Source of the DNA: Thermoproteota archaeon
GTDB taxonomy: Archaea > Thermoproteota > Thermoprotei > Gearchaeales > Gearchaeaceae
Direction: 5' to 3'
DNA: 64,000 nucleotides
Assembly (NCBI GenBank): GCA_032249235.1
Contig: JAVVGF010000001.1
Location: 160,001 to 224,000, forward strand
Positions 22,838 to 59,754 of this stretch are shown piece by piece (the first letter of the stretch is position 1; each line of letters begins with the position of its first letter). The notes under the pieces were generated by a model, which had not been told where the DNA came from, did not search any database, and saw only the letters and a list, made by a program, of their open reading frames with translations. The position numbers were made by a program, and so were the translations under genes.

Positions 22838-22899
22838 TAATGAATACTCTCAGCCTTAATATTTAAGCTTAAAGGCAATATCTTTGAAGCAAAAAAGAA

Positions 22900-30709: not shown

Positions 30710-30832
30710 TGGTAAATATAAAATTTTTTTTTATCAAATTATATATAAGATTTTCTCTTTTTTTCGAGTGGTAAGACAAAAAAGGCTATTTTGAGCAATA
30801 CATTTTTAAATTTGAAATTAATGCATAACTTA

Positions 30833-33511: not shown

Positions 33512-33551
33512 CTTAAATAAATATTTATATTTTTTTTATTATCTTTTCTTT

Positions 33552-36028: not shown

Positions 36029-36031
36029 ATT

Positions 36032-36760
36032 TTAGGATATTAATTTTATGGATATTAATTCATATTTAATTTGTGTATTATCGGAATAAGTCAATATATA
36101 ATATACTAGAAAATCTTTTTCATTTATTTTAGTAACCCAAAACTCACTTTTATTTATATTATTTATTATATTTGTTGTACTATATTTATATATTGTTAAA
36201 TTGGTATAATAATACGATTTATTCTCTTTTCCATTAAAAGATATATTATTATTTAAATATTTTAATAAATCATCATTAAATCTTTCAAATGGAAAAATTA
36301 AAATTCGATCGATATAATTCCATAAATTTTGAGCATATTTACCTGTCACTTCTTGTTCGTCTCCTTTTTTTGCTTTTAATATTTGATATGAAGCTATATT
36401 AATCCAGAAAACATATATGTTTATCTCATTTGTAGAGTTCAAAAATATCTTTATTGTGTAAGCTAAAGTTCCATTTAAATTTTCTTTGCCAATGTATTGA
36501 TATATTATGTTAAAAAATAATGAAGAAGAGATAAAATAGCGATAGTTTATTATTTCAAAATACTCTACAAACTTTATTGCGCTTTGAATATCCAAAAAGT
36601 TTAATCTAATTGTCGGGTTAGAAGAAGTAGTTAACGTTGGAGTTGTAATAGTAGAGTTAGTATTGGGGTTGGAAGGAAAATTTCTGAAGGACAAGGTAGT
36701 TACAGATATAATAACAAAAAGAATAATAAGAGTTATGATTATTTTTGTTTTTCTCTTCAC
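36032..36760 (-). CDS. N-terminally anchored extracellular protein with LolA/RseB-like beta-sheet signature
   Basis: Basic N-terminus plus TM, Thr/Ser/Pro linker, then IGKENLNGTLAYTIKI...FWINIASYQILK and a second half-repeat NGKENKSY...EFWV. Confidence 0.5.
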   Translation of the reverse strand: MKRKTKIIITLIILFVIISVTTLSFRNFPSNPNTNSTITTPTLTTSSNPTIRLNFLDIQSAIKFVEYFEIINYRYFISSSLFFNIIYQYIGKENLNGTLAYTIKIFLNSTNEINIYVFWINIASYQILKAKKGDEQEVTGKYAQNLWNYIDRILIFPFERFNDDLLKYLNNNISFNGKENKSYYYTNLTIYKYSTTNIINNINKSEFWVTKINEKDFLVYYILTYSDNTQIKYELISIKLIS

Positions 36761-36856
36761 ATGATTAACTCATTTTGTTTTTTAAAAATTTTTTCGTTGG
36801 TGTCTATAAAGAAATTACCGTAACATTTAATTCTATTGAGGATTAAAAATTCTATA

Positions 36857-37903
36857 ATGAAAATTGCTATAATAGGTGCAGGACCTGCAGGAGCTAATTG
36901 CGCTTATTGGGCTTCAAAAGAGGGTCATGAGGTAGTATTGTACGAGAAAAACACAGATTTTGCATTGAAGCCTTGCGGAGAAGGAGTATTTAAAGAAGCT
37001 TTTGAATATGTTCCAATAAAACCTGAAGAATCGAAGTGGTCTTTAAGCTATATTCATAGGGCTGAAGTTTATTATAAGAACAAATTATTACTCGAAACAG
37101 ATACCTCACCTTTTGATGGATATATTATTAACAAAAGGGCTTTCCTTAGAGAACTTGTAGAATATGCGATTGATGAAGGTGCTCGATTTCAAAAAGGGAG
37201 TTACTTTGTAGAAAAGGATGACTTTGATTTGATAATCGATGCAGGAGGCTACGTTTCAACTTTTGCAAGAAGAAAAGGTATTGTATATAATAATTATAAG
37301 CTAGCACCTGCTATACGCGGTTATGGGAAGTCATCTAAAATACGTGAAGATACCTTATACTTTGAAGTATATAATTTTGGTTATTCATGGATATTTCCTT
37401 ATGGCAAAGGATACTGCAACTTCGGAATAGGAGGACATACGAACAATAAATCGCTCATGCTCAATAATTTATATTCCTTTTTGAAATTATTCGATGTAGA
37501 AATAGTTTCTAAGATTGAAGGCGCTGCATTTCCATCAAATGGTCCTCTTAAGAAACTAACTTTAGGCAAAATTAGAGTTGCAGGTGACACAGCGGGTATG
37601 GTCATGCCTATAAGCGGTGAGGGAATAAGATTCGCCTTATATGCTGGTAAGATATGTTATAAAGAAAATTATGAAGAATTATTCAAACAAAAATACGGTA
37701 AAAAATTAGAAAACGGCAAAAAAATCTTAGACTTTTGGCTAAGTTTAAATGAAGAAGAACTTAAAATTTTAATAAAAGAAATGGATCCTTTGAAACTTAT
37801 CATGGCTTTTCTTGAAGGAGAAAAACCAAGTGTAATTGAAGGATTTAAGTTTTTGAAGAAACCTAACGTTATATTAAAAGCATTACAAAAAGTTTATATT
37901 TAA
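36857..37903 (+). CDS. Geranylgeranyl reductase-family FAD oxidoreductase (paralog 1)
   Basis: IIGAGPAG, KPCGEG, GYSWIFP, AGDTAGMVMPISGEGI; start set at ATG 36857. Confidence 0.85.
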   Translation: MKIAIIGAGPAGANCAYWASKEGHEVVLYEKNTDFALKPCGEGVFKEAFEYVPIKPEESKWSLSYIHRAEVYYKNKLLLETDTSPFDGYIINKRAFLRELVEYAIDEGARFQKGSYFVEKDDFDLIIDAGGYVSTFARRKGIVYNNYKLAPAIRGYGKSSKIREDTLYFEVYNFGYSWIFPYGKGYCNFGIGGHTNNKSLMLNNLYSFLKLFDVEIVSKIEGAAFPSNGPLKKLTLGKIRVAGDTAGMVMPISGEGIRFALYAGKICYKENYEELFKQKYGKKLENGKKILDFWLSLNEEELKILIKEMDPLKLIMAFLEGEKPSVIEGFKFLKKPNVILKALQKVYI

Positions 37904-37911
37904 TATAAAAA

Positions 37912-38112
37912 TCAGCCTTCTTTAAACGGTTTTATTTTTGCGTCTCCTTCAAATCTCAGTGTTCCCAATTTTGCTTCGCCTAGATAAAGCGATACGGCAA
38001 GATTCAAATTAGCAGACCATCCTGTTCCTAACGCCATTTTTGCTACTTCTAATAAGAATGCAAATAGTGGGTTCAAAGTTAACTCGGCCAATGTTTGCTT
38101 TTCTTCACTCAT
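37912..38112 (-). CDS. Small hypothetical protein (66 aa), apparent paralog of 38148-38321
   Basis: ATG start with TATA-like element upstream; helix plus beta-hairpin pattern. Confidence 0.65.
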   Translation of the reverse strand: MSEEKQTLAELTLNPLFAFLLEVAKMALGTGWSANLNLAVSLYLGEAKLGTLRFEGDAKIKPFKEG

Positions 38113-38147
38113 TGACTAATAAGTCTTATATTTATTTAAAAGCTTTA

Positions 38148-38321
38148 CTATCCTTTCTTTGGAATGTATTCAATATTACCATTTATGACTACGGTGATCA
38201 ACTTTGTCTTGCCATAGTTTAAATCAATTTTAACATCTTTCATGCTTATTTCGAAATGTCTGTTCATTATTAGCATTATCAATTGCCTTATTACTTCCGC
38301 ATTGAATAGAATTTTCTCCAT
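38148..38321 (-). CDS. Small hypothetical protein (57 aa) not in the ORF track
   Basis: Manual translation MEKILFNAEVIRQLIMLIMNRHFEISMKDVKIDLNYGKTKLITVVINGNIEYIPKKG*; aligns by eye with the 66-aa neighbour. Confidence 0.65.
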   Translation of the reverse strand: MEKILFNAEVIRQLIMLIMNRHFEISMKDVKIDLNYGKTKLITVVINGNIEYIPKKG

Positions 38322-38482
38322 AAGCAAAAATCTTTGTCATGTTTAAAGCTTTATCTATCTTTTTTCGTTTAATGTTTTATCATTTGTTTCCATACATGAT
38401 TCTTTGCTTAATCTTCAACTCAAGCTTTTTTTCTAACGTAATTACGGATAAGATTAATTTGTCTAAATTCATTTATTTGAAC

Positions 38483-39616
38483 GTGAATAAATGCATCATA
38501 ATAGGAGCTGGACCAGCAGGCTTAACCTTTGCATGGCATGCAGCAAGGAAAGGTTTGAATGTAACTGTATATGAGGGAAGAAAAGTTTTCGCAACGAAAC
38601 CTTGTGGCGAAGCGTTAGCTGGTGATTCATTAAGCGTACTTCCTTTTAAAATCGGTTATATGTACAAATGGATTTTATCGCCTATGCGTTTTGTCGAGCT
38701 CTATTACAACGGTAGGTATTATAGAACAATAAAATCTCCCTTCGGAGAAAACGGCTATATAATAAACAAAAGATTATTCCTTCAAGAGTTGGCGGACATT
38801 GTTGAAAAAGAAGGTGCTAAAATCGAAATGGGCAAGTTTTTTAAACCATCGCTAGATGACGCAGATTTGATAGTTGATGCGTCTGGCTATTTGACAGCTT
38901 CTCGTAATTATTTAAATTTAAGAGAATTATACAATAAAGAATACAGGAATATACCTGTTTTAAGAGATTATGCTGAATCAAATGGAATACTTAAGGAAGG
39001 TTATTTGCTCATCGATCTTTTAGATAGAGGATATTTCTGGATATTTCCTTATGGCAAAGATACTTATAATATTGGAATTGGAGGTCTATATAGCGGTGAA
39101 GAACTAAGAAAAATTTATGAAAAGAAAATTAATCAATTCGAACTTAAGTTAATAAAGAATACTAGACAGGGTGCAAGTGTATCTATAGGTGGAATTATAT
39201 CTAATCAAAGAATAGGTAAATATTATATTATTGGAGAAGCTGCGGGCTTCGTCATGCCAACAACAGGTGAAGGAATACGTTTTTCAATACTATCTGCATA
39301 TGAATATTTCAATAACAATAGCTTACTAAAGAACATTAGAAAAAGAATACAGTTCAATGCTAAACTTTTGAGACTGGCGATCGAATTGGATGATAAGCTA
39401 AAAAGCAAGCTAATTAGCCAAGCTCCTGAAGATTTGATCATGGTATTTTTAGGGGAAAAAAGTGTTTCTACTAATGATATTATAAAGTTCTTATCAGTCT
39501 TTTCAAGAAATCTTAGCACAAGTCTTCAAAGATCACTTTACTCTATTGTTCAATTTTTAATATCTAACAAAGTTGATACAAAAAAATATGTATTGAATTC
39601 TAATGTAAAACATTAA
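38483..39616 (+). CDS. Geranylgeranyl reductase-family FAD oxidoreductase (paralog 2)
   Basis: IIGAGPAG, KPCGEA, GYFWIFP, IGEAAGFVMPTTGEGI; likely start GTG 38483 (track 38339). Confidence 0.85.
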   Translation: MNKCIIIGAGPAGLTFAWHAARKGLNVTVYEGRKVFATKPCGEALAGDSLSVLPFKIGYMYKWILSPMRFVELYYNGRYYRTIKSPFGENGYIINKRLFLQELADIVEKEGAKIEMGKFFKPSLDDADLIVDASGYLTASRNYLNLRELYNKEYRNIPVLRDYAESNGILKEGYLLIDLLDRGYFWIFPYGKDTYNIGIGGLYSGEELRKIYEKKINQFELKLIKNTRQGASVSIGGIISNQRIGKYYIIGEAAGFVMPTTGEGIRFSILSAYEYFNNNSLLKNIRKRIQFNAKLLRLAIELDDKLKSKLISQAPEDLIMVFLGEKSVSTNDIIKFLSVFSRNLSTSLQRSLYSIVQFLISNKVDTKKYVLNSNVKH

Positions 39617-39646
39617 TATTTTTATGTAGAGATTTCCTTAAGTTTT

Positions 39647-42600
39647 ATGATGAAATTTTTGTCGAAGAAAGTTATAGTAGTCGCTTTGCTAATTATCCTT
39701 ATCTTAGGAATTCTGCTTTATTTTCTGCCAGACATCGGCTATATGATATTCTTTAAGAATCCTTCAATAGCTTTAGTAGGCGTTGAAGGTAAAGGAGTAC
39801 AAGGAGATTTCGTATTGATGAGCGCATTGCTTAACGTTACAAACAATGCAGGGGTATCTGTAGTTTTAAAAGAAGCGAATGGCGAAGTATATTATAAGGG
39901 AGATAAATTTGGAACTTTCAATTATAAAGGTTCTCTTTTCATACCTTCTAACGGTCAAGTCTCTATTAATGTTACAGTATTATTAGATTCTAAATCTCCT
40001 ACTTTGAAACAGCTTATTCAAGATATTCTAAAGAATAATTCCTCTGATATATCTTACAAAGCAAGCTTATTAGTTACATCTTCATTCTTCTTCTTAAGCT
40101 TTAGTAAAGAAGTAGAAATAGCTGGCAAGTATATACTTTACTTGAAAGACTTTGTAAAAGTAATAGGATGGGAAATAAACGTCAAAAAGATAAATTTAAT
40201 CTCCTCAAATAATAATCCCTTATTAAATGTAACAGTTAATGCAAAGAATTTATCTAGTTTAGATATTCTTATTAAACAAGCTAATATAACTATTTTTTAT
40301 AAAAAAGAAGCTTTAGGACATTCGAAATTGAATAATCAAATAGCCATAAAAGCTAATGAAAGTAAGGAATTGAGTCTTATCTTAAATTTAACTAATATTA
40401 ACTTATTAAGAGATGCGATTAGGGATTTAATAAATAGCTATTCTATAAGTTTTGATTATATTGCAGATTTAAAGGTTTATTCTTATTATTATTATTTAGA
40501 AACAAATTATACAATTAAGGGAAAGCAAGAATATAAACTATCAGAAGTAGCAAATGATTTGAGACTTAACAAAATAATTATAAACCAAAATAGTATTTTA
40601 GCAGATATCTCCTATTTTAATAATTTAGGTGTTCAATTCTTTGTCAAGGATGTAAATGCAAATATCTACTTTAATAATTCACTGGTAGGCAAAATTAATG
40701 CAACTATAAATAAAGAGATCATACCTGCTACGGAAAATCGATTTCTTATTTCAGCTATTCCAATTGATTTATCTAGTTTAATAGGCTTTATTTTGGATAA
40801 TAAGACGGTTAGACTATCAGTACAGGCTGACATAAGAGTATCAATTTTTAACGAGACTTATTTAGCTCATCTGAGTCTTGAAAAATCTATAAGCTTAGAT
40901 TATACCTTAAAAGCTAGTATAAACAACGTTAGATATGTTGCAGCCAATATTTTGGAAGTCGATGCAAATTTAATTGCTACTACGAATCTTATAACAGGTA
41001 ACTTCACATTGAATAGTGCAAGTTTCAATGCATATTTGAATCAAACTTTTGTAGGAGATGGGATATTACAGAACCCTACAAAAATTTATCTGAATAAACC
41101 TTCTCAAATAAAAATAAGAGTTTATCTACATAAAGATATCATTCCAATATTAATAATAAAATTGTTAACAAATTCTTCTTTTGATTTAGTTCTTAAGAAT
41201 GCCATATTTCAAGTTAATTTTGCAAATAACACATATCCCGTCAAGCCTAGCAAAGATATAATTGTTTCTGCTCAACCTTTTACTTTAGATATCAACATTT
41301 ATAATCCATCTTTCATTGCCTTATCTACTACAACAGATAATAAAATAGGAATTAAGGCAAGTGTAGCGATAAACATTCCGAATGTTTATAACTTACCTAT
41401 TATTATAAAGTCAGCAAATGTCACTCTTGTTGAAGATGAATTTGGACAAATAGGATATCTCTACATAACGAACGATCAACTTATATATCCACAGTATAAT
41501 CTTGTTGGCGATTTCATAGCAAATATAGATAAATCTAAGCTTCAGTTATTGATCCAAAAAGCTATAAATAACAACGGCCTTAATGTTACCTTTAAAGATA
41601 TCGTTATAACAGTATCTATACTTGACAAGACAACTACAATAAAGTTGAGTAAAACATTTGCATTAAAAGTACCTACACCTTTAGTTCTCGAATCTAATCT
41701 AGGAATTAAAAAAGTATCAATAGGGCCTTCGCCTAAATCTTTCTTGATAGACACAGATTTCACTATAAATCTAAAAAGTATGTCTGTTTCCAATGTATAT
41801 ATTAGCGACGCTCGGGCTCAAATATACTTTAAGGATAAACAGATTGGCTACGCGTACATAACAATTAACAGAGTTGTTATCAACTTACCTTTCACTTATA
41901 GTGGTAAGGCTTTAATTAACATTACAGACGAAGGTGCAAGCATGTTAGCTATTGAAATTTTAAAGCAAAATCCTATTACAGTAAGCATTAAAAATATTCA
42001 AGTTAATCTCAAAATCACAGATATACCAATTTCTATAGCTTTACCATCAAACATTGTATTTCAATCAACAATCAAGCCAGATATTAATATACATGTAAGC
42101 GATTTTACTATTCGTTCACCTGGTAACGTTATAGATGCGTTTGCCCAACTTAATTCAACTCTTATTAAATTAAACGTTGACAGAATAGATTCTCTTTCTG
42201 CAAATATTATCGATGAAAATGGGAAGATTTTAGGTTATATTTTAGGTGTTTCCGTAGTTAACAATCCAAATTATATATTTCAAGGAATGATTGAATTGCA
42301 ACTAACGCAGCAAGGACTTGATTCATTAGCACCTAAGCTAATGAATAACAATACTTTAATTATTTTCGCTAAAAATATTGTTATAAATGCTTATATTAAT
42401 AATGTTAAAATTTATATAAATGATCCTAATATATATATTATAAAAATCTCAACAGATTTTCAATATAATTATACTTTTAATATTATTGATTTAAATGCTT
42501 ATCCTCCTGGTACTTTGTTTAAATTGAATATAACAATCGATTATCAAATAAAGAATGGTGTTAATACACCTTTTAGTGTTATTAAAGCAACAATGAAAAT

Positions 42601-43291
42601 ATATAATTTAACAGATTTCTATTTAGGGGATGCTATAGTAGATAAGCCTGTATATGTTAGCTCTTTGTCTGGAAGAATTAATTTCAATGCTTCCTTCTAT
42701 TTACGACCTGAAGGAGCTCCTTGGTTTGCATCAAACCTCGTTAATAACGGTACTGTTAGGATTAAGATTAGCGAAATCTACGCTACTGTGAAATTTTTCG
42801 ATTATAACGTAACTGTACCTATAAAAGGTTTAACATATACATACAAAACCAATCCTGTAACTATAAAAATTGAAAAAATAACGATAAAGAGTGTTAATCC
42901 CTTCGCAAACAGCGCAGTGGTAGAAGCAACTATTTTAGTGTATAATCCATTTAAGTTCCCAGTTACTATTACCTACATGTCTGGAAGCAATTATAGTATA
43001 ACTTTCCAAATTTTCGAATCTCAAAGAGAAGCTCATCCAGGTTATTATCTAGGATATGGCTGGTATTCTTCACAGACTTATGTTCCTGCTTTAAGTAATG
43101 TTACTTTATATCCTGTAACTGTTGTATTAACAGATGTTCTACATTTATTCCTTCCTCCTCACGGAACGCTAGTCCCTTTACATACAAGTATATATGTCGA
43201 TGCTCTGAATGGAAGAGCAGGAATAAAACTATATGATCTTTACTTTACTTTTAAGTTTGAAAAGAGAGAAATATACGTGACTTATCCTTAA
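39647..43291 (+). CDS. Giant N-anchored protein of about 9 tandem LEA_2/WHy-like repeats
   Basis: Single N-terminal TM; ~130-aa units such as LNVTNNAGVSVVLKEANGEVYYKGDKFG...IPSNGQVSINV and ILVYNPFKFPVTI, each followed by an amphipathic helix. Confidence 0.75.
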   Translation: MMKFLSKKVIVVALLIILILGILLYFLPDIGYMIFFKNPSIALVGVEGKGVQGDFVLMSALLNVTNNAGVSVVLKEANGEVYYKGDKFGTFNYKGSLFIPSNGQVSINVTVLLDSKSPTLKQLIQDILKNNSSDISYKASLLVTSSFFFLSFSKEVEIAGKYILYLKDFVKVIGWEINVKKINLISSNNNPLLNVTVNAKNLSSLDILIKQANITIFYKKEALGHSKLNNQIAIKANESKELSLILNLTNINLLRDAIRDLINSYSISFDYIADLKVYSYYYYLETNYTIKGKQEYKLSEVANDLRLNKIIINQNSILADISYFNNLGVQFFVKDVNANIYFNNSLVGKINATINKEIIPATENRFLISAIPIDLSSLIGFILDNKTVRLSVQADIRVSIFNETYLAHLSLEKSISLDYTLKASINNVRYVAANILEVDANLIATTNLITGNFTLNSASFNAYLNQTFVGDGILQNPTKIYLNKPSQIKIRVYLHKDIIPILIIKLLTNSSFDLVLKNAIFQVNFANNTYPVKPSKDIIVSAQPFTLDINIYNPSFIALSTTTDNKIGIKASVAINIPNVYNLPIIIKSANVTLVEDEFGQIGYLYITNDQLIYPQYNLVGDFIANIDKSKLQLLIQKAINNNGLNVTFKDIVITVSILDKTTTIKLSKTFALKVPTPLVLESNLGIKKVSIGPSPKSFLIDTDFTINLKSMSVSNVYISDARAQIYFKDKQIGYAYITINRVVINLPFTYSGKALINITDEGASMLAIEILKQNPITVSIKNIQVNLKITDIPISIALPSNIVFQSTIKPDINIHVSDFTIRSPGNVIDAFAQLNSTLIKLNVDRIDSLSANIIDENGKILGYILGVSVVNNPNYIFQGMIELQLTQQGLDSLAPKLMNNNTLIIFAKNIVINAYINNVKIYINDPNIYIIKISTDFQYNYTFNIIDLNAYPPGTLFKLNITIDYQIKNGVNTPFSVIKATMKIYNLTDFYLGDAIVDKPVYVSSLSGRINFNASFYLRPEGAPWFASNLVNNGTVRIKISEIYATVKFFDYNVTVPIKGLTYTYKTNPVTIKIEKITIKSVNPFANSAVVEATILVYNPFKFPVTITYMSGSNYSITFQIFESQREAHPGYYLGYGWYSSQTYVPALSNVTLYPVTVVLTDVLHLFLPPHGTLVPLHTSIYVDALNGRAGIKLYDLYFTFKFEKREIYVTYP

Positions 43292-45192: not shown

Positions 45193-45299
45193 CTAATCTT
45201 TAATGAGGATTTGTTATTTAAAGATATTTATTAAGATTCGATATCCTTTCATTCGTAATTACAATAAAGAATATAATCGAATGAAACATCTTAATATTA

Positions 45300-46571
45300 G
45301 TGAATTACGAAGTAATAGTAATTGGTGGAGGCCCTGCAGGGGCATATAGTGCAGCTCTTCTATCCAAATATGGTTATAATGTTTTGCTGATAGAAGCAGG
45401 GTCTTATAAAAGATACAAAGTATGTTCTGGTGGCACTCCTCTTCGCTCAGTTGAACTTCTTTCAAAATTGGGCGATCCTTCAAAAATTGTTGAGAGAGAG
45501 ATTAAAGGTGTGAATATATTTATAGAGAACAAAGAAGTTATTTCAACTTATAAAGAAAAACCGATTGGATATAGCTATTATAGAAGCGAACTAGATCAAT
45601 GGATAAGAGATAGAGCTTCAGATCTGGGTTCAGTTGTATATCATGAAACAATTGCTAAAAAGATTAAAATAGAAAGAGATTTCGTTTATGTTAAGTGTTA
45701 TCAAAAAGGGTTAGCTATTGATTTTAAAGGTAAACTTTTGATAGGTGCTTTTGGAATCAAGCCTGATTTATTGTTACAATTAGGCATAAAACCCACAGAA
45801 TATCTCATATCTGTTCAGAGCGAGTTTAAAGGTGATACTCAACATATGGAAGAAGAAATAAGATCCTCTTTTAATTTTCTTATCCATCCTGAATTCTCAA
45901 CATTTAGCTATGGTTGGATATTCCCAAAAAGCGAAGGTCTATCGATAGGTATAACGGATCGTATGGAAGGAAATATTGTATTAGAGAGATTTAAAAAAAT
46001 GTTATCTCAGCATCCTTTGGTTAAGGAGAAAATAAAAAACATGAAAATAATGCCAGTTAACGGTAAAGATGTTTTAGCTCACTTGAATCCAAATCGTCCT
46101 CTAAAAAGGACTTTTGGAAGAAGATTTGTTTTAGTAGGAGACGCAGCTGGCTTTGCAGATCCTATAACTTGGGAAGGGATATATTTTGCATTGAAGAGCG
46201 GTGAAATAGCTGCGAATGCTTTTTCAAAATTGCTTGAAAAAGGAAATATCAATGATAATTCTACTTCGCTCTACGAAAAGATGTGGAAAAGAGATTTCGG
46301 TAAAGTTTTTGAGATTGAATGGGCTGTTAAGCAACTCTTATGGGGAAAAGATCTAACCAATAAATGGCTCACTATAGCGAAATTTTTCAAGAGTAAAGAA
46401 GAAAGATATAACTTATTGAAAGAAGAACTTGCTCTGAGCATGTCGATAGCACCAGTTATAAAAAAGATGTCTACAATAGAGAAATTAAATATCGGCTTTA
46501 AATTAAAAGGTTATAAACTCTTAAGAAAACCCATTAATTTTGTTTATGTTTTCAAAACTTTGTTTTCGTAA
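45300..46571 (+). CDS. Geranylgeranyl reductase-family FAD oxidoreductase (paralog 3, full-length type)
   Basis: VIGGGPAG, KVCSGG, RSELDQW, YGWIFPK, LVGDAAGFADPITWEGI. Confidence 0.88.
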   Translation: MNYEVIVIGGGPAGAYSAALLSKYGYNVLLIEAGSYKRYKVCSGGTPLRSVELLSKLGDPSKIVEREIKGVNIFIENKEVISTYKEKPIGYSYYRSELDQWIRDRASDLGSVVYHETIAKKIKIERDFVYVKCYQKGLAIDFKGKLLIGAFGIKPDLLLQLGIKPTEYLISVQSEFKGDTQHMEEEIRSSFNFLIHPEFSTFSYGWIFPKSEGLSIGITDRMEGNIVLERFKKMLSQHPLVKEKIKNMKIMPVNGKDVLAHLNPNRPLKRTFGRRFVLVGDAAGFADPITWEGIYFALKSGEIAANAFSKLLEKGNINDNSTSLYEKMWKRDFGKVFEIEWAVKQLLWGKDLTNKWLTIAKFFKSKEERYNLLKEELALSMSIAPVIKKMSTIEKLNIGFKLKGYKLLRKPINFVYVFKTLFS

Positions 46572-46574
46572 AAG

Positions 46575-49871: not shown

Positions 49872-49901
49872 TTAATTTAAAGACTATCTCTGTTTATAAA
49901 A

Positions 49902-52900: not shown

Positions 52901-53039
52901 CCCCCAATTGCTTTATTCCTAAAACTTTTACACTTTTTATTGAAGGCTGAAATATAAACATCGGAAATATTAGAAAGACGGAAACTATAATTACTGCAAT
53001 TAAAACTAGGGCAATTAATTTTCTCTTTCCTATACGCAT
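49902..53039 (-). CDS. Giant N-anchored protein of about 8 tandem LEA_2/WHy-like repeats
   Basis: Likely start ATG 53039 (MRIGKRK plus TM; track 53096); IENPLNSSFIIQDI and IINPYNFTVKLDLAILNIYD...VG units. Confidence 0.75.
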   Translation of the reverse strand: MRIGKRKLIALVLIAVIIVSVFLIFPMFIFQPSIKSVKVLGIKQLGDNLVIDASLVIINNFQAISINKGHINILYENNKFATITINNPLDINSGENSIKLSAFVDKEDIKYFSSVLNGLFSKGNIEVSYEGNVNTKFLFFEIPTTIKGSTFLYQYSLNNTIKSVSIDKNTINVIIENPLNSSFIIQDISGVLKIYNNDIIHFYSNKSYEVEANQNFIINLFYNSTSYINNLGNIIFSNPLMNSIINAKIKFGTILIPLNISLSRNIEIPTFSNFTINSIKYFKYPERLEITGYLSSKIASLPLNGINLAGGSGKVILNETYIADFRITDSSASNGIVYSKIVILPIIDNFYLFVDEFLKNSTVKLSLNFVEQPKLAFGTDIVNLKLGKYSINLDWGYARFIIGVKPYSIMYDQNKDTLIIGFNFSFLSLNVTGIPMTIDEAVFKLNFNNGKLVFDQKINGPIDLSNSSNFFTTVTLGVNDPNVKPLIQDFAKNGSLLLQIQGGYLKVNVYGKTISKQTNLNILLKISPLDILEANAYLINIRSFDSSYKLDLNISLKSKLKVEKFFLVNVYMNVFTIEGDKVLENFKQDINQYISNEQSYNFSTTSVVKLSKSLTGKMIKDFLEKGKTNLIILDANITVKIGTFSIILLIRNVTLNVILLPLLQVYLNNINIINGKTLSFSFDMKLKGIEVPFGVNNFEGNVTDEFSNIIGYIKLSNASYINSSFKGNGLIVLTNKNQTNLAKILLGYNATVIGKNIKGSISLLGENYDLFAESSVFITIIPNIKPLSFEVSVIDINVPPSISDNFVYVKFRLTISNNIVDAKLVNASFTIKDELRIEVANGTISEVIPISKDTYIATAKLNLLSGPRLDYIATLIANGKTVKVTIDKIIVIVNLMDQYYTASLPLNLTITYQSKPVQVEILEFQVMYISGNEIKAKSTIKIINPYNFTVKLDLAILNIYDSMDGKPVGNTQLSNITLGPNSSTIISDLEINIPDVSVSYVLRHYNSQNDTLKMNVDIQVLISIKVGNLKTIIQYTVNNLPVRYR

Positions 53040-53193
53040 CAATATTTTATTAGTTTCTTTCTTAAAAAGTATTGAGAATAAATTTTGAAATATCAAAGGG
53101 TGGTTATTTTTCTCGATTTGCCTTTCTTTAATACTATGGTAATACCCATAGTTTATGTATTAATTTTTTAAAGATGTCTGCGAAAGTGTTACT

Positions 53194-55911
53194 ATGAGAA
53201 GAATACTTCTTTCAATACTGATTTGTGGATTAATACTGGGGGGCTTATTCAATATTCAATCCTCTTACGCAAATGGCCAATATCAATCTTCAAGCTCAGG
53301 CGGTCAATGGGTTAGTCGCTATAATTCGCCTTATAATAATCCCTATTCTGAAAAACTCTATAGTTCCATTGCAGATAATTCATCTATCTCACTTTCGAAT
53401 CTAGGTGATCCTAATGGAGAAATCGCTTCTAAAGCATTAATATACAACAATATCGCGTACTTCGTAACCAAATCTGTAAGTATTTACTCTTTAGATCTTT
53501 CAAGCTATAACTATAAATCTATGAATCTGTCATTATCAAATAATATACTAAGCTCTACTCCTGCTCTTGTCGGTGAAAATTGTAATACTATCGCTGCAAT
53601 AGATGGATTGTCTTTTGTTAATTTTATAAGATTTGGGCCGGGCTTGAGTATTTCATTGCTAAGAAAATATGGACCTTTGAATATTTATTCAAATCCTGTA
53701 ACGCCTAGCAATTCTAATTTTTTCATAACGAGCAATTCTTCTCCTTCAGGTTATATCTATGTTTTTGGTTGTGATGGAACTATTAACAATATATATATGT
53801 TATCACCTTATGAGCAACCTGAAAAAGGAGTTGCGGTTAAATCTAATACAATATACGTACTCACAAATTTTGGCTCTGTAAAAGCTATTGGTAATGTGAA
53901 CTGGAACGCCCAACTCGGATTGAAGTTTACACAAGAACCAGTTATCTATAACGATCGGATTTTCGTAAGAGGTGTAATGTATGAAGATGGTTCCGAAATG
54001 ATAGTAGCGTTGAATTCAACTAACGGCTCAACTATATGGTCTTTAAGAATTCCAGCAACCATACTAAGTCCGATGGTAATATTTCAAGATAGAATTTATT
54101 TCATAACCGAAGGACCTTATATCTACAGCCTTAATGCTTCAAATGGTGCTGTTCTAAAAACAAAGAAGCTTCAATCTATTTCTTTTACTGGTATTTCGCC
54201 AGATATGATAGCGATTTCAAGCGAATTGGTCTTCACAGGTATTTACAATGGCAAATTTTCGCTCGTTTATTATGATGTTATTGATGATTTGATCAATTAT
54301 GATTATTTGAATGCTAACTTAGGTAAACCAATAGGGATTAGTTTAGGTAATGGTAAAATTATTGTTACTTTTCAAAAAGGAATTGAACAATTACCCATAA
54401 AAGCTAAAGCTTCACTAAAAATCTATGTTGAACCCGCTTCATATAACTATAGCGTAAATATTAATGGAACAAGCTATATTATACAACCAAACAATACATT
54501 CATACTTTACCTCTTCCTCAAAAGACCTTCTTCTCTTAATTTAGAAATTAAAAATAAGATTATAATAAACGATCAGAAATATCTCGGATTTTATAGATGG
54601 GAAAACGTTTCACAAAGCAATTTCAATAAATCAACAGTTTACATTAATCAATGGGATTCAATTGTAGTTAAAGCTTATTATAGATATTATCTTTTAACAA
54701 ACTTAAATTTGGATTATAAAATCATAAGTAGTCAGCAAATCAACGTAACGCCTAAAATAAATATAGTTGAATACAATTCGACGAAAGTCTCACTTTTCCT
54801 TCCACAAAATACGACATCTAACTTCACTATTTATGCACAACCCGTAGTTGTGATTAACAAGACTTCAAGTCTTGTGTTTCAAAAATGGAGTGATGGAGAT
54901 AAAAATTACATAAGAAAGATTTATGTGCAGGCAGGTTCGACTGTTTATTTCACAGCACTATACTCATTATCTAATAACTATACGCTAACTTTAATAGTGA
55001 ATCCATCAAATTATGCTTCTAAAATTTTACAAAGTTTATCAACAAATTTGAATAATGTTACTTCTATGGTTTGGATAGTCCCTCCAAATACAAATGTGAC
55101 TTTTGAAATCAAGCAAACTATAATATCTTTAAATAGTACAGCTAGATTAGCATTTGCCTATTGGTCAGGCGATATTTCTTCTAACGACACTAAAATTACA
55201 TTTTCAGTATCTCATACCAACTTTACTATAGTATTAAATTTCCAATTACAAAAATTATTCATAGTAAAGCTAATTAATATAACATATTATAATAATCAAA
55301 TAATTAATAATGGTACTTCAACAATCTTAAGTAAGTGGTATTCTAGTTCAAATTATAATTACACTTTGAAAATTAATAAAATAATTTATTTAAATAAATA
55401 TGAAAGATTATTAATTTCTAATTATACAATAAACACTATTAATTCAAAAACTAATGAGACATCTAATTATATTATTTCTACGATAACTTTGAGTAGTGGA
55501 ACTACACTTATCAAAGTGGTATATGTTTTGCAAAAATACACACAGCTTCTAATTATTTTCAATGATCCAGAAGTTAAATATATATTTATAAATGGAACTA
55601 AAGAAGATATAATAAAAAACAATAATACTTATCTAGTAAATAAAACTATGTGGACTTCGAATAGCATAAAATTCTATATTGAGGCAGTTGAAAAGGTAAA
55701 ATTAAGCGATTATGAGTATATTGTTTTTAAATCTTTTAATAATACATCCTCTTCTTCGATCTCTGTGAATTTAAATCCGGGTGATAAAGTTACTTTGTAT
55801 GCTCAGTATCAAAGAGAAAATGTACTAGCTCTTTCGAGTAGCATCTTGGTAATATTGATATTGGTCATAGGTATAATGGTTATTGCCATTCTAATAAGAT
55901 GGTTGATGTAA
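53194..55911 (+). CDS. Surface glycoprotein with PQQ-like beta-propeller, beta-sandwich repeats and C-terminal TM
   Basis: Signal peptide; ALNSTNGSTIW and SLNASNGAV propeller motifs; F.KWSDG / FAYWSGD repeats; TM tail. Confidence 0.8.
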   Translation: MRRILLSILICGLILGGLFNIQSSYANGQYQSSSSGGQWVSRYNSPYNNPYSEKLYSSIADNSSISLSNLGDPNGEIASKALIYNNIAYFVTKSVSIYSLDLSSYNYKSMNLSLSNNILSSTPALVGENCNTIAAIDGLSFVNFIRFGPGLSISLLRKYGPLNIYSNPVTPSNSNFFITSNSSPSGYIYVFGCDGTINNIYMLSPYEQPEKGVAVKSNTIYVLTNFGSVKAIGNVNWNAQLGLKFTQEPVIYNDRIFVRGVMYEDGSEMIVALNSTNGSTIWSLRIPATILSPMVIFQDRIYFITEGPYIYSLNASNGAVLKTKKLQSISFTGISPDMIAISSELVFTGIYNGKFSLVYYDVIDDLINYDYLNANLGKPIGISLGNGKIIVTFQKGIEQLPIKAKASLKIYVEPASYNYSVNINGTSYIIQPNNTFILYLFLKRPSSLNLEIKNKIIINDQKYLGFYRWENVSQSNFNKSTVYINQWDSIVVKAYYRYYLLTNLNLDYKIISSQQINVTPKINIVEYNSTKVSLFLPQNTTSNFTIYAQPVVVINKTSSLVFQKWSDGDKNYIRKIYVQAGSTVYFTALYSLSNNYTLTLIVNPSNYASKILQSLSTNLNNVTSMVWIVPPNTNVTFEIKQTIISLNSTARLAFAYWSGDISSNDTKITFSVSHTNFTIVLNFQLQKLFIVKLINITYYNNQIINNGTSTILSKWYSSSNYNYTLKINKIIYLNKYERLLISNYTINTINSKTNETSNYIISTITLSSGTTLIKVVYVLQKYTQLLIIFNDPEVKYIFINGTKEDIIKNNNTYLVNKTMWTSNSIKFYIEAVEKVKLSDYEYIVFKSFNNTSSSSISVNLNPGDKVTLYAQYQRENVLALSSSILVILILVIGIMVIAILIRWLM

Positions 55912-56001
55912 TTTATGAGAATTTGGTATTGAAAGCTATTTAATAAAGATTATTGTTAAGTTCTCCAAAAGATTTAAATCGATAAAATCAAATGAGGTCA
56001 T

Positions 56002-56715
56002 ATGAATAAAAAATTTTTAGCCATTTTACTAGCTTTAATAATCATTAGCTTACAGCCAAATTTCGTAAGTGCTGAGAAGCAACAGGGAAAGCTAACGGCT
56101 AATTTTATGGAAAGCCGCAGTTTTGCTATAGGAACGATATCTTTGGGTATTAACTATGAAATAAATTACAATGTTGATTATAAAGCAGAAGTAGCAAAAG
56201 GTGATACTAACGATATCAATTTATCTCTCTATGGAGGTGTAGCTAATTTAACTTTTGGTTTTCAAAATCAAACATTAAACTATAATAGAACAATGAAGCT
56301 AGGCGAACAGGTTGCATTCAACGTTGGTCCTTTAAGATTGAATATTCTTCTAAAGGCTGAAGCACCAATAAATATATTAGGTAGCGCTAGTAGTCAATCT
56401 TCAATGGTGACTTTTGAAAATGAAGGACAGCAAACAATTAAAGTTAAAGTTAGCGATTCTGCTAATGTTGGGGATCTCATTAAAATCAGCTTACCGTTTT
56501 CTCTCAGAATCTTCATGGCTATTACTGCTCCGATAAGCATTTCTTTCTTTGAGTTAGGTAAGGTAAATCTGTTTCCAGAATTATCATTACAATTCAAAGT
56601 TACAAGTAGTTGGTTTGAGAGCAACTTTTATCTTATATTAGCTCTTGTAATTGCAGTGATTATCATGGCAGCTTTAGCTATTTTATTTATCATGAGAAGA
56701 AGAAAGAAGACATGA
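56002..56715 (+). CDS. Secreted beta-rich protein with C-terminal TM anchor
   Basis: Signal peptide ending VSA, TM plus RRRKK; TTTAAAT box upstream. Confidence 0.75.
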   Translation: MNKKFLAILLALIIISLQPNFVSAEKQQGKLTANFMESRSFAIGTISLGINYEINYNVDYKAEVAKGDTNDINLSLYGGVANLTFGFQNQTLNYNRTMKLGEQVAFNVGPLRLNILLKAEAPINILGSASSQSSMVTFENEGQQTIKVKVSDSANVGDLIKISLPFSLRIFMAITAPISISFFELGKVNLFPELSLQFKVTSSWFESNFYLILALVIAVIIMAALAILFIMRRRKKT

Positions 56716-56966
56716 AAGCTATCTTATTTGGCATTTTGTTTTGTTTCGTGGGCTCTATAATGTTTGTCTATGCGGTTTACAATATCTTATTAACAATTTA
56801 CAATTACCATGTTATAATTCCTACATCTATTACAGAATTCATAAACTATTATTTTGGTGAAACTTTTGTAAGTATTAACGATATTTTATTTCTAGGTGTT
56901 TTTGGAGCAATAGGTGCCATACTATTTTACTTCGGTCTATTTATTGTCTATCTCTTTAAAAAATAA
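56712..56966 (+). CDS. Small 2-TM membrane protein
   Basis: ATGA overlap; two hydrophobic helices. Confidence 0.7.
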   Translation: MKAILFGILFCFVGSIMFVYAVYNILLTIYNYHVIIPTSITEFINYYFGETFVSINDILFLGVFGAIGAILFYFGLFIVYLFKK

Positions 56967-56983
56967 AAGAATGAAATTTTAGT

Positions 56984-57262
56984 ATGACTATGGAAGAGAT
57001 TAATAGAAGCAGAAAATTTGGATATGTATGTATTATTCTTGGTCTAGGCTTAATAATTCTTTCTGCAGGATTAGCCTTAAGAGAATACTTCTTTTATAGA
57101 GCAACCATAGGCGAGGTCTCGAGCGTCCCTTCCATATTAGGTTTCCTTGCTACCGAATTGCTTGTTTTAATAGTGAAAGTTGCATTTTTAGGTATTGTAA
57201 TTGCAGGTAGCTCTATATTACTAAGATATGGATTAGAGCTAATAAAGGAAGTTAAAAAATGA
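56984..57262 (+). CDS. Small 2-TM membrane protein
   Basis: Two hydrophobic helices; operonic spacing. Confidence 0.7.
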   Translation: MTMEEINRSRKFGYVCIILGLGLIILSAGLALREYFFYRATIGEVSSVPSILGFLATELLVLIVKVAFLGIVIAGSSILLRYGLELIKEVKK

Positions 57263-57645
57263 CGCTTAGACATGAAGTATTGATTTCCATTTTATCTGTT
57301 TTCATAATATTTTTATTATTCAGTCCTCTTACTCTTTTTTTACAAGACTTAGCGAAAGGGCACATATATTTTAAGTTTCAACATAAAGGTAATGAGATAT
57401 TATTAATCCTTGTTAATGAAGGTAACAGTTATCTTAGCGATATAACTTATAATGCAACTGCTCAAGATATATACAATAATTTATACACAAAGACTGGCAA
57501 AATTGATTCTTTCAAAAAAGGTGATAATATAACTATTAAAATACCTTTAAAAATACCAAATGCGATAATAATAAAAGTTGATTTGAAAATATCTGCAAAA
57601 ATTAATGGACTTTATAGATTTGATTTTGAAGTAAAAAGAGAATGA
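57259..57645 (+). CDS. N-anchored single Ig/LEA-like domain protein
   Basis: TM then LILVNEGNSYLSDITYNAT...GKIDSFKKGDNITIKIPL; ATGA overlaps on both sides. Confidence 0.65.
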   Translation: MTLRHEVLISILSVFIIFLLFSPLTLFLQDLAKGHIYFKFQHKGNEILLILVNEGNSYLSDITYNATAQDIYNNLYTKTGKIDSFKKGDNITIKIPLKIPNAIIIKVDLKISAKINGLYRFDFEVKRE

Positions 57646-58127
57646 GCAAGGCCACTGACATAATTAAGGCTTATCTTATTATAACCCTTATTGAAGGCAT
57701 ATTGAGAACTATAATGATATACATTGTTCTTATAATCTTACCTGCTGTTATTCTCGTACGGCCTGTAGTTATAACTAAAACTTTCATAGACATAATGATT
57801 ATTTGCATCGCAGCTTCAGCATTTAGAATTTACGTTATTTCTCCTATACTTATAACACTTGCTTATTTTTACAGTTTCTTAGTTTCTGCAAATACATTGG
57901 ATTTCGGATACTTAAGTTATAATTGGGAAGTATATACTTTTCAAATATCCTTCTTTCTAGACATGTCGCCTTTAGTTTTTGCTCTATTTGCCACGATAGT
58001 CATTCCTATGAGTATTTCTGCATTTTATTCTTATTATATTACACAAGCAACAGGAAGTATAAGAAGGCCTCCAGTACCTCTTACAGGGGCTACTATAAGG
58101 GATATAATTCTTGAAATATTACGTTAA
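57642..58127 (+). CDS. Multi-TM membrane protein
   Basis: 3-4 hydrophobic segments; ATGA overlap. Confidence 0.7.
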   Translation: MSKATDIIKAYLIITLIEGILRTIMIYIVLIILPAVILVRPVVITKTFIDIMIICIAASAFRIYVISPILITLAYFYSFLVSANTLDFGYLSYNWEVYTFQISFFLDMSPLVFALFATIVIPMSISAFYSYYITQATGSIRRPPVPLTGATIRDIILEILR

Positions 58128-58167
58128 ACACTTAAATATAAATTAAAGGTTTTACAATAAATTTTCA

Positions 58168-59754
58168 GTGAGCTGGGAGATTATTCTCTCAGCTGATCGC
58201 GGATCATTTACAGATTATAATGGCTCTAGCGTGCTGGGGTATGTTGCATGTATGCCTTCTCGCCTTGTACCTAGATTTTTTATGGATAAGTTCTTTACGC
58301 CTCCTATTAAAAGCGATGAAAGTGGAAGAGCTCTTTATGCTCCCTATGCTTTGAGGAAAATCGAAGCTACACTTGTCAATAAAGGTTTTAAAGAAGTAGC
58401 TGTCGTTTCTCCTGAAAGATTAAAAGATGTAGTAAGTAAAAAGACAAAAATTTTGGGATTGAGTGTTCATGATCCGTTAGGTATTGATCCTGTAAGCACG
58501 AAGTTATGCATGATATTTGGAGGAGGACCTAGCTGGACTGCAGTATTTTTTGAAGAAGTTGGTAACCTTGTTAATGAATTGAAAAAGAAATATAACTTCA
58601 AAGTTATAGTTGGAGGGCCTGCTGCTTGGGAATTAATAAAAGAAAGACCTAATTGGATTGATGTATTATTCATTGGAGAAGCTGAACACTCTTTGCCAGA
58701 AGTAGTCGAAAACCTATTAAATGGTAAAGAAGCACCTAAAATAGTATATGGGAAGGATGCTAAAATAGATGAAATACCTCCTATAATCAATCCTGCAAGG
58801 CTTGGAGAAGTACAAATAACAAGAGGTTGTCCTAGAGGATGTGCATTTTGTAGCATAACACCTGAAACTTTCAGATCAATTCCTTTAGAAATTATAAAAA
58901 AAGAAGTAGAAATTAATTTGAAGGGAGGTTGGAATAGAGTTGAATTCATAACAGACGATCTAATGCTCTATGGTTCTAACAAGCTTAGAGTTAACCACGA
59001 TGCAATAACAAAGCTGTATAGCGAAGTAATGAAAATGAAAGTCGATGGTATTTGGTTCCCACATATTTCAGCACCTCCTGTGAAAGAAAGTCCTAGAACT
59101 ATTAAAGCAATCTCTGAAACAGCTCATTATAGCTTCGATAGGGCAGATGCTCCAGTTGTAGGTCTTGAAACAGGAAGTGAAAGAATATTTGTTAAGTACA
59201 TGCGTGCTAAATCTTTTCCCTACGAGCCAAGAGAATGGAGAGATGTCATCATAGATGCTACTTCAATAATGAACGATAATTATATATTTCCTTGTTATAC
59301 GATGACAATAGGATATTTTGATGAAACAGAGGAAGATGTAGAGTATAGCATTAGATTAGTCCAAGACATTATAGATCATCAATTCATTGCTTGGATATTT
59401 CCCTTGCCTGTAATACCGATGGCAACGAGTAGAATAAATAAAAATCCATTTCCTACTTTAAAGAGAATGCCTAAAAATTATTGGGATCTTTTATATATTT
59501 CTTGGTCTTACAATTTAAAAATTACAAGGAAATTAATACCAACCTTAACAGGAGGTATTAGAAATAAGATCATAAATAAGATAACAAATTTAATGATAGA
59601 CAAGATCTTTAATAATATCGAATGGATATTTTATCAGTTAAAAGAGACTAAGGGTCTCAGTTCTCTTAATTATAGTAGCTTAAACCTTAATAACATAATA
59701 GGAATATTAAGGTCGATTACTTGGTTATTTAAGCTAAGTTTTAAACCGTTATGA
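58168..59754 (+). CDS. B12-binding-like radical SAM enzyme, likely GDGT ring synthase (Grs) family
   Basis: ITRGCPRGCAFC (CxxxCxxC); N-terminal ADRGSFTDY, APYALRKIEA, LSVHDPLG, IVGGPAAW, FIGEAE, GLETGS match my recollection of the Sulfolobus GrsA/GrsB family. Radical SAM call is firm, Grs call is moderate. Confidence 0.72.
   Translation: MSWEIILSADRGSFTDYNGSSVLGYVACMPSRLVPRFFMDKFFTPPIKSDESGRALYAPYALRKIEATLVNKGFKEVAVVSPERLKDVVSKKTKILGLSVHDPLGIDPVSTKLCMIFGGGPSWTAVFFEEVGNLVNELKKKYNFKVIVGGPAAWELIKERPNWIDVLFIGEAEHSLPEVVENLLNGKEAPKIVYGKDAKIDEIPPIINPARLGEVQITRGCPRGCAFCSITPETFRSIPLEIIKKEVEINLKGGWNRVEFITDDLMLYGSNKLRVNHDAITKLYSEVMKMKVDGIWFPHISAPPVKESPRTIKAISETAHYSFDRADAPVVGLETGSERIFVKYMRAKSFPYEPREWRDVIIDATSIMNDNYIFPCYTMTIGYFDETEEDVEYSIRLVQDIIDHQFIAWIFPLPVIPMATSRINKNPFPTLKRMPKNYWDLLYISWSYNLKITRKLIPTLTGGIRNKIINKITNLMIDKIFNNIEWIFYQLKETKGLSSLNYSSLNLNNIIGILRSITWLFKLSFKPL

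Follow-up and report, generated by a model that had tools for sequence, protein, structure and literature searches.

We analysed a 64,000-nucleotide stretch of a Thermoproteota archaeon genome (G000:C1:160001-224000, where G000 is the genome that holds this window), in which nine genes between positions 36032 and 55911 form a compact block of three geranylgeranyl reductase (GGR) paralogues, three giant proteins built from repeated LEA_2 domains, a LolA-like protein and two further large glycoproteins, gathered from dispersed loci. The genes are separated by spacers of 3-107 bp, except for one gap of 435 bp, and form at least six transcription units in both orientations. All of the open reading frames (ORFs) that the initial annotation had assigned to a pathway for tailoring and exporting isoprenoid and tetraether lipids are present where it placed them and spaced as it described. 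G000 is a metagenome-type assembly of 1.43 Mb in 18 contigs, with 91% completeness and ~30% GC. Its host is a small-genome hot-spring archaeon of the class that includes Sulfolobales: the best matches of the conserved window proteins come from Sulfolobales and uncultured members of the same class, and every sequencing run containing more than one-tenth of the window's sampled words is labelled hot-springs metagenome. Among the relatives used for comparison, G002 belongs to the same genus as G000, G005 and G007 to another genus and G011 to a different family, and L079 is a 15-kb metagenome contig from a close relative of G000 (79-90% protein identity).

The three reductases, flavoproteins of the GGR family, are encoded on the forward strand at 36836-37903 (GGR-1, 355 aa), 38339-39616 (GGR-2, 425 aa) and 45300-46571 (GGR-3, 423 aa). 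TIGR02032 is the best family match for all of them, with GGR-3 scoring 173.4 bits, above the cut-off of 158.8, and GGR-1 and GGR-2 scoring 129.7 and 121.5 bits, below it. Each carries the motifs GxGxxG (FAD Rossmann; as GAGPAG or GGGPAG), K-x-C (KPC or KVC), YxWxFP (YSWIFP, YFWIFP or YGWIFP) and GD/ExAG, and all three look catalytically intact by these motifs; GxGxxG, the context of the catalytic cysteine, YxWxFP and GD/ExAG are given as GGR hallmarks in the available part of PMC10821996. The thresholds of the digeranylgeranylglycerophospholipid (DGGGPL) reductase equivalogs NF041080 (580 bits) and NF041160 (780 bits) were not reached, the best scores of the block enzymes being 77-98 bits (for GGR-3, 97.9 bits against the 580 required by NF041080), and GGR-3 is predicted to be a GGR-family prenyl reductase other than the DGGGPL reductase equivalog. 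At scores of at least 96.7 bits, leaving two weaker partial matches uncounted, the family comprises seven intact genes and one pseudogene in G000. Three of the seven intact genes fall in a single 10-kb stretch of the window, and the best-scoring GGR of the whole genome (C1:54239-55105, 223 bits for TIGR02032) lies outside the window, 106 kb away. Because the ORF of GGR-2 opens 33-50 codons ahead of the starts of all its orthologues (38339-38490), its first 33-50 residues are probably untranslated and the real start further downstream. Such a start would widen the 435-bp gap that follows GGR-1, in which nothing was found. GGR-2 is co-oriented with the gene for the 1214-aa giant and lies 30 bp ahead of it, and GGR-3 converges on the gene for the 1098-aa giant, with 3 bp between the two stop codons.

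The giants are the 1214-aa protein (39647-43291, forward strand), with about nine LEA_2-like domains, the 1098-aa protein (46575-49871, reverse strand), with eight LEA_2 domains, and its 1064-aa paralogue of the same architecture (49902-53096, reverse strand). Every giant has a single N-terminal hydrophobic helix, read here as a membrane helix that anchors the protein in type II orientation. With a curated Pfam cut-off of 25.4 bits for LEA_2 (PF03168), the 1214-aa giant scored 34.3 bits and the 1098-aa giant 58.1 bits over two stretches; the 1064-aa giant had no Pfam match and aligns collinearly with the 1098-aa giant across 1071 columns (21% identity, E 3e-8). A repeat hidden Markov model found ~9 units in the 1214-aa giant. 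The AlphaFold2 (AF2) model of the 1098-aa giant, built on a 21-sequence family alignment (mean predicted local distance difference test score, pLDDT, 80.4; predicted TM-score, pTM, 0.47), consists of an N-terminal helix followed by eight successive units of ~125-135 residues, each modelled as about seven strands and one helix in the order strands, helix, two strands; at this pTM the inter-domain geometry of the array is uncertain. In a structure search of 48,161 representative chains that was independent of Foldseek, the model's top three matches were plant LEA14 (1xo8, Z 11.5), the luminal domain of TMEM106B (8b7d, Z 10.5) and Archaeoglobus fulgidus AF_0446 (3but, Z 10.1), with generic Ig-like chains trailing at Z ≤9.0. 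Searched against PDB sequences, the giant family profile returned four matches only, namely 1xo8, two sequences of TMEM106B and 3but, and aligned the transmembrane helix and first domain to TMEM106B residues 102-207 (E 0.006). Foldseek with the whole 1098-residue model was uninformative, yielding only generic multi-sandwich proteins at TM-scores of 0.1-0.16. Pfam, structure search and PDB profile search thus agree on the proposed identity of the giants as LEA_2-repeat proteins, and all three are predicted to be N-anchored arrays of 8-9 LEA_2 domains.

An exhaustive search of 1.84 billion cluster representatives found 15 representatives of the giant family at E ≤0.001, and giants are present in 5 of 41 related genomes. 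LEA_2 occurs in this order in the giant form only; another family of the class has small forms, in ORFs of 193-423 aa. The tandem of the 1098-aa and 1064-aa genes is conserved in G005, G007, G002 and L079. The G007 orthologue of the 1214-aa giant (L022, G007:C33, 10410-14050) is split by stop codons into ORFs of 307 aa and 844 aa. Separately, residues 1-159 of the 1098-aa giant, comprising its N-terminal helix and first sandwich, align with archaeal type IV pilins (Sulfolobus acidocaldarius AAP, 8q30, Z 7.3; Pyrobaculum 8fk7, Z 6.9; S. solfataricus 8fjs, Z 6.6), a likeness that we treat as a lead only. The N-termini have no obvious class III signal cleavage motif.

The remaining three proteins of the block are likewise anchored. 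At its left edge lies the 242-aa LolA-like protein (36032-36760, reverse strand), which has an N-terminal transmembrane helix and no match in Pfam or NCBIfam. Its AF2 model, from an alignment of only three sequences (pLDDT 78.6), combines the transmembrane helix with a half-barrel, and the top nine matches among the same 48,161 chains all belong to the LolA/LprG/LppX/RseB/ependymin group (Z 9.0-6.8, root-mean-square deviation 4.7-6.3 Å), with LprF, LppX and LprG at Z 8.4-7.7. Foldseek matched LprG (E 3.5e-4, TM-score ~0.3), and an atlas search gave DUF3108 as a lead (score 0.88). The label LolA-like, taken from the initial annotation, can therefore be kept with moderate confidence for the modelled fold, a LolA/LprG/LppX-like half-barrel. 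A word-indexed database search with this protein returned two proteins, and homologues among 40 relatives were limited to G011 (27% identity) and marginal matches in G024 and G030 (E ~3e-4). The 634-aa secreted glycoprotein (43288-45192, reverse strand) has a C-terminal transmembrane anchor, 4.1 N-glycosylation sequons per 100 aa and no Pfam match; atlas search scores reached at most 0.78, with fn3 as a lead only, and no fold was assigned. Its family is found in 7 of 8 genomes of the taxonomic family, a distribution unlike that of the giants. The right edge is formed by a 905-aa secreted beta-propeller glycoprotein of PQQ_2/BamB-like type (53194-55911, forward strand; PQQ_2 33.3 bits) with a C-terminal anchor and orthologues in G002, G005 and G007, and none in G001 or G003. 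Sequon density reaches 2.5-2.6 per 100 aa in the giants and 2.5-4.1 across the five large block proteins, compared with ~0.2-0.7 in most cytoplasmic window proteins, and marks the giants, the 634-aa and the 905-aa proteins as putative extracellular glycoproteins.

In related genomes these genes live apart. Orthologues of GGR-1 (67% identity in G002, 60% in G007), of GGR-2 (73% in G002, 65% in G007, 62% in both G001 and G003) and of GGR-3 occupy three other conserved contexts in G001, G002, G003 and G007, none of them beside a giant. Nor did any neighbouring ORF match a window protein, GGRs included, at the seven giant-homologue loci of G002, G005 and G007, so that the linkage of giant homologues to lipid genes on which the proposed pathway had been staked fails in these genomes. 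Pfam scans covering three of the seven loci (G002:C5, G005:C9 and one gene at G007:C22) identified the giants' neighbours as housekeeping genes: a RadA paralogue, phosphoribosyl pyrophosphate (PRPP) synthase, a family 2 glycosyltransferase (GT2), TATA-binding protein (TBP), signal peptidase, alcohol dehydrogenase (ADH), aminotransferase, CBS, SfsA and metallophosphoesterase. In G002 the orthologue of the 1214-aa gene sits between the RadA paralogue with a 133-aa gene and PRPP synthase, and the orthologous loci in G005 and G007, themselves outside the Pfam scan, have a matching upstream gene pattern.

Searching G000 for the relatives' flanking genes located the native sites, and every native context proved to be present and collinear in G000, with the gene itself gone or decayed. 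The sites of the 1214-aa gene (between C6:7880 and 7914), the 1098/1064 pair (between C1:473644 and 473726), GGR-2 (between C5:42661 and 42712, flanked by 116-aa and 159-aa genes), GGR-3 (between C2:30381 and 30391) and the 905-aa gene (between C1:315277 and 315280) are empty, 2-82 bp separating the flanking genes. GGR-1 left a pseudogene with stops and frameshifts (C1:114453-115376), which shares 62% identity with the block copy, 60% with the G002 gene and 55% with that of G001. The 634-aa gene left a C-terminal remnant in three frames (C2:64875-65590), corresponding to residues ~392-630 in three pieces at 34-43% identity, at a native locus common to G002 and G007. Two genera have the native sites of GGR-1, GGR-3 and the 1214- and 634-aa genes in common, as well as that of the pair as far as G002's contig end shows, so that the dispersed state is ancestral and the block derived. 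The stretch 36032-55911 is thus a lineage-specific gathered block, whose ancestors stood at six or more separate conserved loci. The pseudogene identities and the nearly equal median protein identities of G001 (68.5%) and G002 (66.9%) to G000 fit both transfer of a ready-made block, followed by loss of the native copies, and stepwise relocation of genes. No integrase or transposase had a Pfam match among the 34 window ORFs scanned (13 smaller ORFs at 7.4-17.1 kb and an 89-aa ORF at 62676 lay outside the scan), and further scans returned no tRNA, Rfam match or flanking repeat.

To put a number on this gathering, relocations were counted between G000 and 743,597 of the ~1.2 million bases of G002 (contigs C1-C7, with 60,000 of the 63,859 bases of C7, and the first 20 kb of C9), which hold 770 ORFs and gave 659 reciprocal best hits. 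The count was restricted to ORFs of at least 80 aa, reciprocal best hits with at least 50% coverage and triplets whose flanks are close in G002. Between the two genomes 577 of 645 adjacent pairs are still adjacent, and 632 testable triplets contained 13 single-gene moves from intact flanks. Five of these 13 (GGR-1, GGR-3 and the 1214-, 634- and 905-aa genes) fall in the block, whose 19,880 bp account for 1.39% of the genome (binomial P 6e-7); by this test the clustering of the block genes is non-random. GGR-2 and the 1098/1064 pair are outside the 13 because they lie on G002:C12 and at a contig end.

A metagenome-type assembly of 18 contigs and 91% completeness could in principle have produced the block by a chimeric join of contigs from several organisms, the more so as an Opp operon seems broken exactly at the left block edge. 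Independent data make such an assembly or binning artefact very unlikely, to the point of being negligible. The gene order of L079 (1214, 634, GGR-3, 1098, 1064, 905) is that of G000, which means that the block is kept in a second lineage. Moreover, Logan contigs assembled from X5 and X6, two runs of other studies than those of the possible source samples, bridge every gene junction from 36028 to 55911, including the left edge, the internal junctions and the end of the 905-aa gene, and extend beyond both ends of 35990-55989 with 0-13 differing letters per piece; contigs of X4 are shorter pieces, and match. The native sites, too, are empty within the same assembly.

One reductase is tied to the giants even where the genes are unlinked. 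Giants are found in G000, G002, G005, G007 and G011, and GGR-3 orthologues (42-71% identity) in exactly the same five genomes. None was found in G001, G003, G004, G006, G008, G009 or G010, where the best matches are paralogues at 26-27% identity or nothing, and GGR-3 and giants are accordingly concordant in all 12 genomes of the order (together in 5/5, both missing in 7/7). The sites of GGR-3 and the 1214-aa gene in G001 are assembled and cleanly empty, as is the 1214-aa site in G003. The pattern is patchy within genera, which argues for several gains or losses. The 905-aa protein also tracks the giants in the five genomes tested.

In G011 (L133, G011:C108, 8019-11983) the GGR-3 orthologue (42% identity) is followed after 24 bp, on the same strand, by a gene for an 844-aa FG-GAP beta-propeller/Big_7/CARDB (Ig) surface protein, a second instance of a GGR-3-type reductase adjoining a large envelope protein. 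This neighbour was considered as a LEA_2 protein and rejected, hhalign against the giant profile giving a probability of 0.2 and no similarity.

The genes on either side of the block have a different history. Upstream lies an MMPL/RND-type transporter (27009-30158, reverse strand; MMPL 216.5 bits over two stretches, with a weak sterol-sensing domain match), 5.9 kb from the block and on the opposite strand, with a piece of an Opp/Dpp peptide ABC operon between them (30197-36028, forward strand). By Pfam, this piece contains a 170-aa gene, a binding protein and two permeases, and its ATPases are absent. The Opp order in G001, G003 and G007 runs from a block of unrelated genes through a 171-aa gene, the binding protein and two permeases to two ATPases, and G002 has the same order from the binding protein onward, up to its contig end. 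The ATPases directly follow the permeases in G001, G002, G003 and G007; those of G000 are at C2:90102-92153, and together with the unrelated-gene block they occupy C2:90102-99710. In G001 the MMPL gene stands 8 kb upstream of the Opp set with other genes between, and the MMPL-Opp adjacency of G000 is a product of rearrangement.

Downstream of the block, five genes for small membrane proteins (237, 84, 92, 128 and 161 aa; 56002-58127, forward strand; no Pfam match) precede a B12-type radical SAM gene (58168-59754, forward strand; 528 aa; Radical_SAM 44.1 bits). Its product is 66% identical, at 100% coverage and the same 528-aa size, to S. acidocaldarius Q4JC22 (saci_0240), which is named GrsB (PMC13023045) and which, according to the available part of the review PMC13459092, puts rings at C3 of GDGTs (glycerol dialkyl glycerol tetraethers). 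The translation contains a radical SAM motif in the stretch CPRGCAFC (CX3CX2C), and its best NCBIfam matches are B12-binding radical SAM families, below their cut-offs. A second paralogue elsewhere in G000 (34% identity) is presumably of the GrsA type. The earlier description of the window protein as Grs-like can thus be sharpened to GrsB, of which it is, by sequence, an ordinary orthologue. The five small membrane genes, grsB and the following CstA gene are collinear with G001 only, a genome without giants, and GrsB orthologues of at least 58% identity occur in the giant-free G001, G004, G006 and G008 and were not found in the giant-bearing G002, G005 and G007. One of these, a 91%-identical GrsB in G008, was considered as an intergenus transfer and the idea dropped, as other genes of the same contig are also 78-93% identical to G000. 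That 10.9-kb contig (L074, G008:C27), binned in another genus, carries G000-like genes in a completely different order; it was probably mis-binned and comes from a G000-like organism. Because L074 is probably G000-like, the near-complementary distribution of GrsB and giants shows non-linkage only. GrsB, the small membrane genes, MMPL and Opp are flanking context, outside the gathered block.

Several further features of the flanks were noted. The CstA gene (60864-62624) is split by an in-frame TAA at 62070-62072 into ORFs of 402 aa and 182 aa; in G001 it is a single 564-aa gene, 84-86% identical, and for the window copy a pseudogene, a gene in two parts and an error of sequencing are all conceivable. 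Between grsB and CstA lies a 258-aa ORF (59833-60609) with no family match, and G001 has a 259-aa ORF in the same place with no detectable similarity to it (E > 1e-4). Two further large anchored glycoproteins, of 929 aa (DUF11/TRAP_beta) and 1164 aa (InlB B-repeat), are encoded at 20048-26394.

What, then, holds the gathered genes together? We favour, with a probability of roughly 40%, the reading that the block is a lipid-handling envelope module whose genes serve one envelope process. Three observations lead us there: three prenyl reductases share the block with LEA_2 and LolA-like proteins, whose folds are unrelated and both putatively lipid-binding; the block reductases differ from the bulk-lipid enzyme; and the single accessory reductase, GGR-3, tracks the giants. 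The derived gathering and the co-occurrence of GGR-3 with giants argue for a functional link between GGRs and giants that is real though indirect; direct binding is not claimed, because the giants' cytoplasmic tails are only ~10 residues long. In mechanistic terms, a pre-assembled block would have been transferred, or genes relocated step by step, and the resulting cluster retained for one envelope process. GGR paralogues at the cytoplasmic face would act on a polyprenyl lipid distinct from bulk archaeol and saturate it. With their N-terminal helices as membrane roots, the LEA_2 arrays might reach tens of nanometres under the S-layer, where they and the LolA-like protein could bind, hold or pass lipid via the hydrophobic grooves proposed for LEA_2 domains. 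A bolder version of the module, which we consider doubtful, casts the arrays as an archaeal counterpart of bridge-type lipid conduits, rooted in the cytoplasmic membrane and crossing the space below the S-layer. With the LolA-like protein as shuttle, they would transport or hold in store a polyprenyl lipid to which dedicated GGR paralogues had given a special saturation, and selection for the shared task would have drawn at least six dispersed loci together into a single transferable block.

Several observations weigh against a shared lipid-handling role. GGR-1 and GGR-2 are core genes that also occur in giant-free genomes, and among the genomes searched GGRs and giants are adjacent only in G000 and L079. 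The 12 genomes behind the GGR-3 pattern are kin and not independent trials, so that 12/12 overstates the co-occurrence. The neighbourhood also took in the Opp fragment without its ATPases, a non-lipid element taken in at the block locus itself, and the 929-aa DUF11-type surface protein, a sixth relocated gene 13 kb upstream whose G002 flanks map to G000:C2:137-140 kb. Of the 13 relocations, several have low identity and may be mis-called paralogues; the enrichment holds with 8 counted, and mis-calls among the other seven relocations would only sharpen it. The five block intergenic regions share no common promoter motif, the best candidate being a 10-mer common to three of the five, which 22 of 60 random sets equalled. 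Finally, contigs of one metatranscriptome run cover the block only in part, on stretches of GGR-1, GGR-3 and the 1214- and 1098-aa genes; DNA may be present in that run, and such contigs do not demonstrate transcripts.

The main rival reads the same facts as the work of a function-blind relocation sink, a hot spot that gathers gene-sized segments from elsewhere in the genome or from relatives, with no common pathway; fast-evolving genes for surface proteins and multi-copy GGR paralogues would merely be those that move most readily. The truncated Opp piece is the main argument for it, joined by the 929-aa surface protein, by the number and mixed orientation of the transcription units and by the lack of a shared promoter motif. 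Large surface glycoproteins are a variable class, and five of the nine block genes encode large, fast-diverging glycoproteins: giant identity is no more than 32-42% between relatives that have a median of 53-67% to G000. A sink is possible, if short of probable, for it does not account for the fact that every one of the three relocated enzymes is a GGR paralogue, for the later loss or pseudogenisation of the native copies of two of them, which are core genes, or for the agreement of GGR-3 with the giants across 12 of 12 genomes from unlinked loci; nor was any integrase, transposase, tRNA or flanking repeat found to mark a hot spot. If the module is instead one of surface glycoproteins, the GGRs would saturate the dolichol-phosphate carrier (or quinone side chains) and the LEA_2 arrays would be structural or adhesive. 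The high sequon density of the five large proteins and the surface-protein neighbour of the G011 GGR-3 orthologue fit this account, and the available part of PMC10821996 names dolichol phosphates and quinones as lipids that GGR paralogues of archaea are proposed to saturate, and reports that a Haloferax GGR deletion loses saturated dolichol phosphate. We think it improbable: Pfam scanning found no oligosaccharyltransferase or glycosyltransferase in the block, all relatives need glycosylation, yet GGR-3 and giants occur in only 5 of 12, and the LolA-like protein is left without a role.

The wider pathway of the initial annotation, in which GrsB, MMPL, the LolA-like protein, GGRs and giants together tailor and export tetraethers, is harder still to credit. 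All of its components lie within 33 kb, its radical SAM enzyme is a true GrsB orthologue, and mycobacteria are known to pair an RND pump with a LolA-like carrier. Against it stand the synteny of GrsB and the small membrane genes with giant-free G001, the failure to find GrsB orthologues in G002, G005 and G007, and the position of MMPL, which is derived, on the other strand and set off by the unrelated Opp piece. Of the single pathway once proposed, the tie between GGRs and giants survives, through the derived gathering and the GGR-3 co-occurrence, while GrsB, the small membrane genes and MMPL drop out; tetraether tailoring and export by the block is a speculative reading.

Collectively, the domains and enzymes of the block are themselves of known kinds, and what is new is an 8-9-domain LEA_2 architecture confined to one small archaeal order, the evolutionary tie of these giants to GGR paralogues, and the documented formation of a cluster from dispersed ancestors that left fossils at their old sites. 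To our knowledge, the routes by which archaea carry lipids and lipid-linked molecules past their cytoplasmic membrane are essentially undescribed, and we know of no experimentally established function for LEA_2 domains in any domain of life. The gathering and the co-occurrence turn structural speculation into a testable pairing of an enzyme with a putative carrier, and the fossil-marked gathering bears on how operon-like clusters arise. Were the conduit version of the lipid-handling module true, the block would be a rarely documented supercluster caught while forming; were the sink reading true, it would still serve as an instructive case of a relocation hot spot in which no mobile-element genes can be recognised.

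We found no description of a multi-LEA_2/GGR system in the literature searched, and its parts compare with known systems to different degrees. Bridge-type lipid conduits such as the Lpt bridge, AsmA/TamB/YhdP and VPS13 are membrane-rooted, beta-rich chains that span an envelope gap. For the LEA_2 arrays, which could be long enough for such a gap and might carry hydrophobic cargo, they offer a working analogy only: their fold is unrelated, and the arrays are not known to have a partner in an outer layer. The mycobacterial carriers LprG and LppX are closer to the 242-aa protein, which models as the same half-barrel and has an MMPL pump 5.9 kb away, but it is anchored by a transmembrane helix and not through a lipobox, has no sequence-family match, and the pump lies outside the block. 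The window GrsB is an ordinary counterpart of the S. acidocaldarius enzyme and evolutionarily unlinked to the block. The block GGRs share their motifs with the archaeal GGR paralogues of arCOG00570, and their multiplicity is normal: G000 has seven intact genes, and S. acidocaldarius has GGR and five uncharacterised paralogues according to the available part of PMC10821996, which contains no description of three such genes gathered beside giant envelope proteins. Like the giants, TMEM106B, Vac7 and Tag1 place one or more LEA-2 domains behind a single-pass anchor; unlike them, they are eukaryotic lysosomal proteins with 1-3 domains and are not linked to prenyl reductases, and for them, too, lipid transfer is no more than a prediction in the available part of 10.1101/2021.03.12.435176. 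The nearest relatives in form are the archaeal tandem LEA-2 proteins, AF_0446 (3BUT) and the 311-aa protein of Thermococcus litoralis, which share with the giants an N-terminal anchor and extracellular sandwiches of seven strands and one helix. As described in the same portion of that preprint, the archaeal proteins typically have two domains in ~311 aa, compared with 8-9 domains in 1064-1214 aa in the giants, and 3BUT has a hydrophobic groove holding an unmodelled, probably lipid, ligand.

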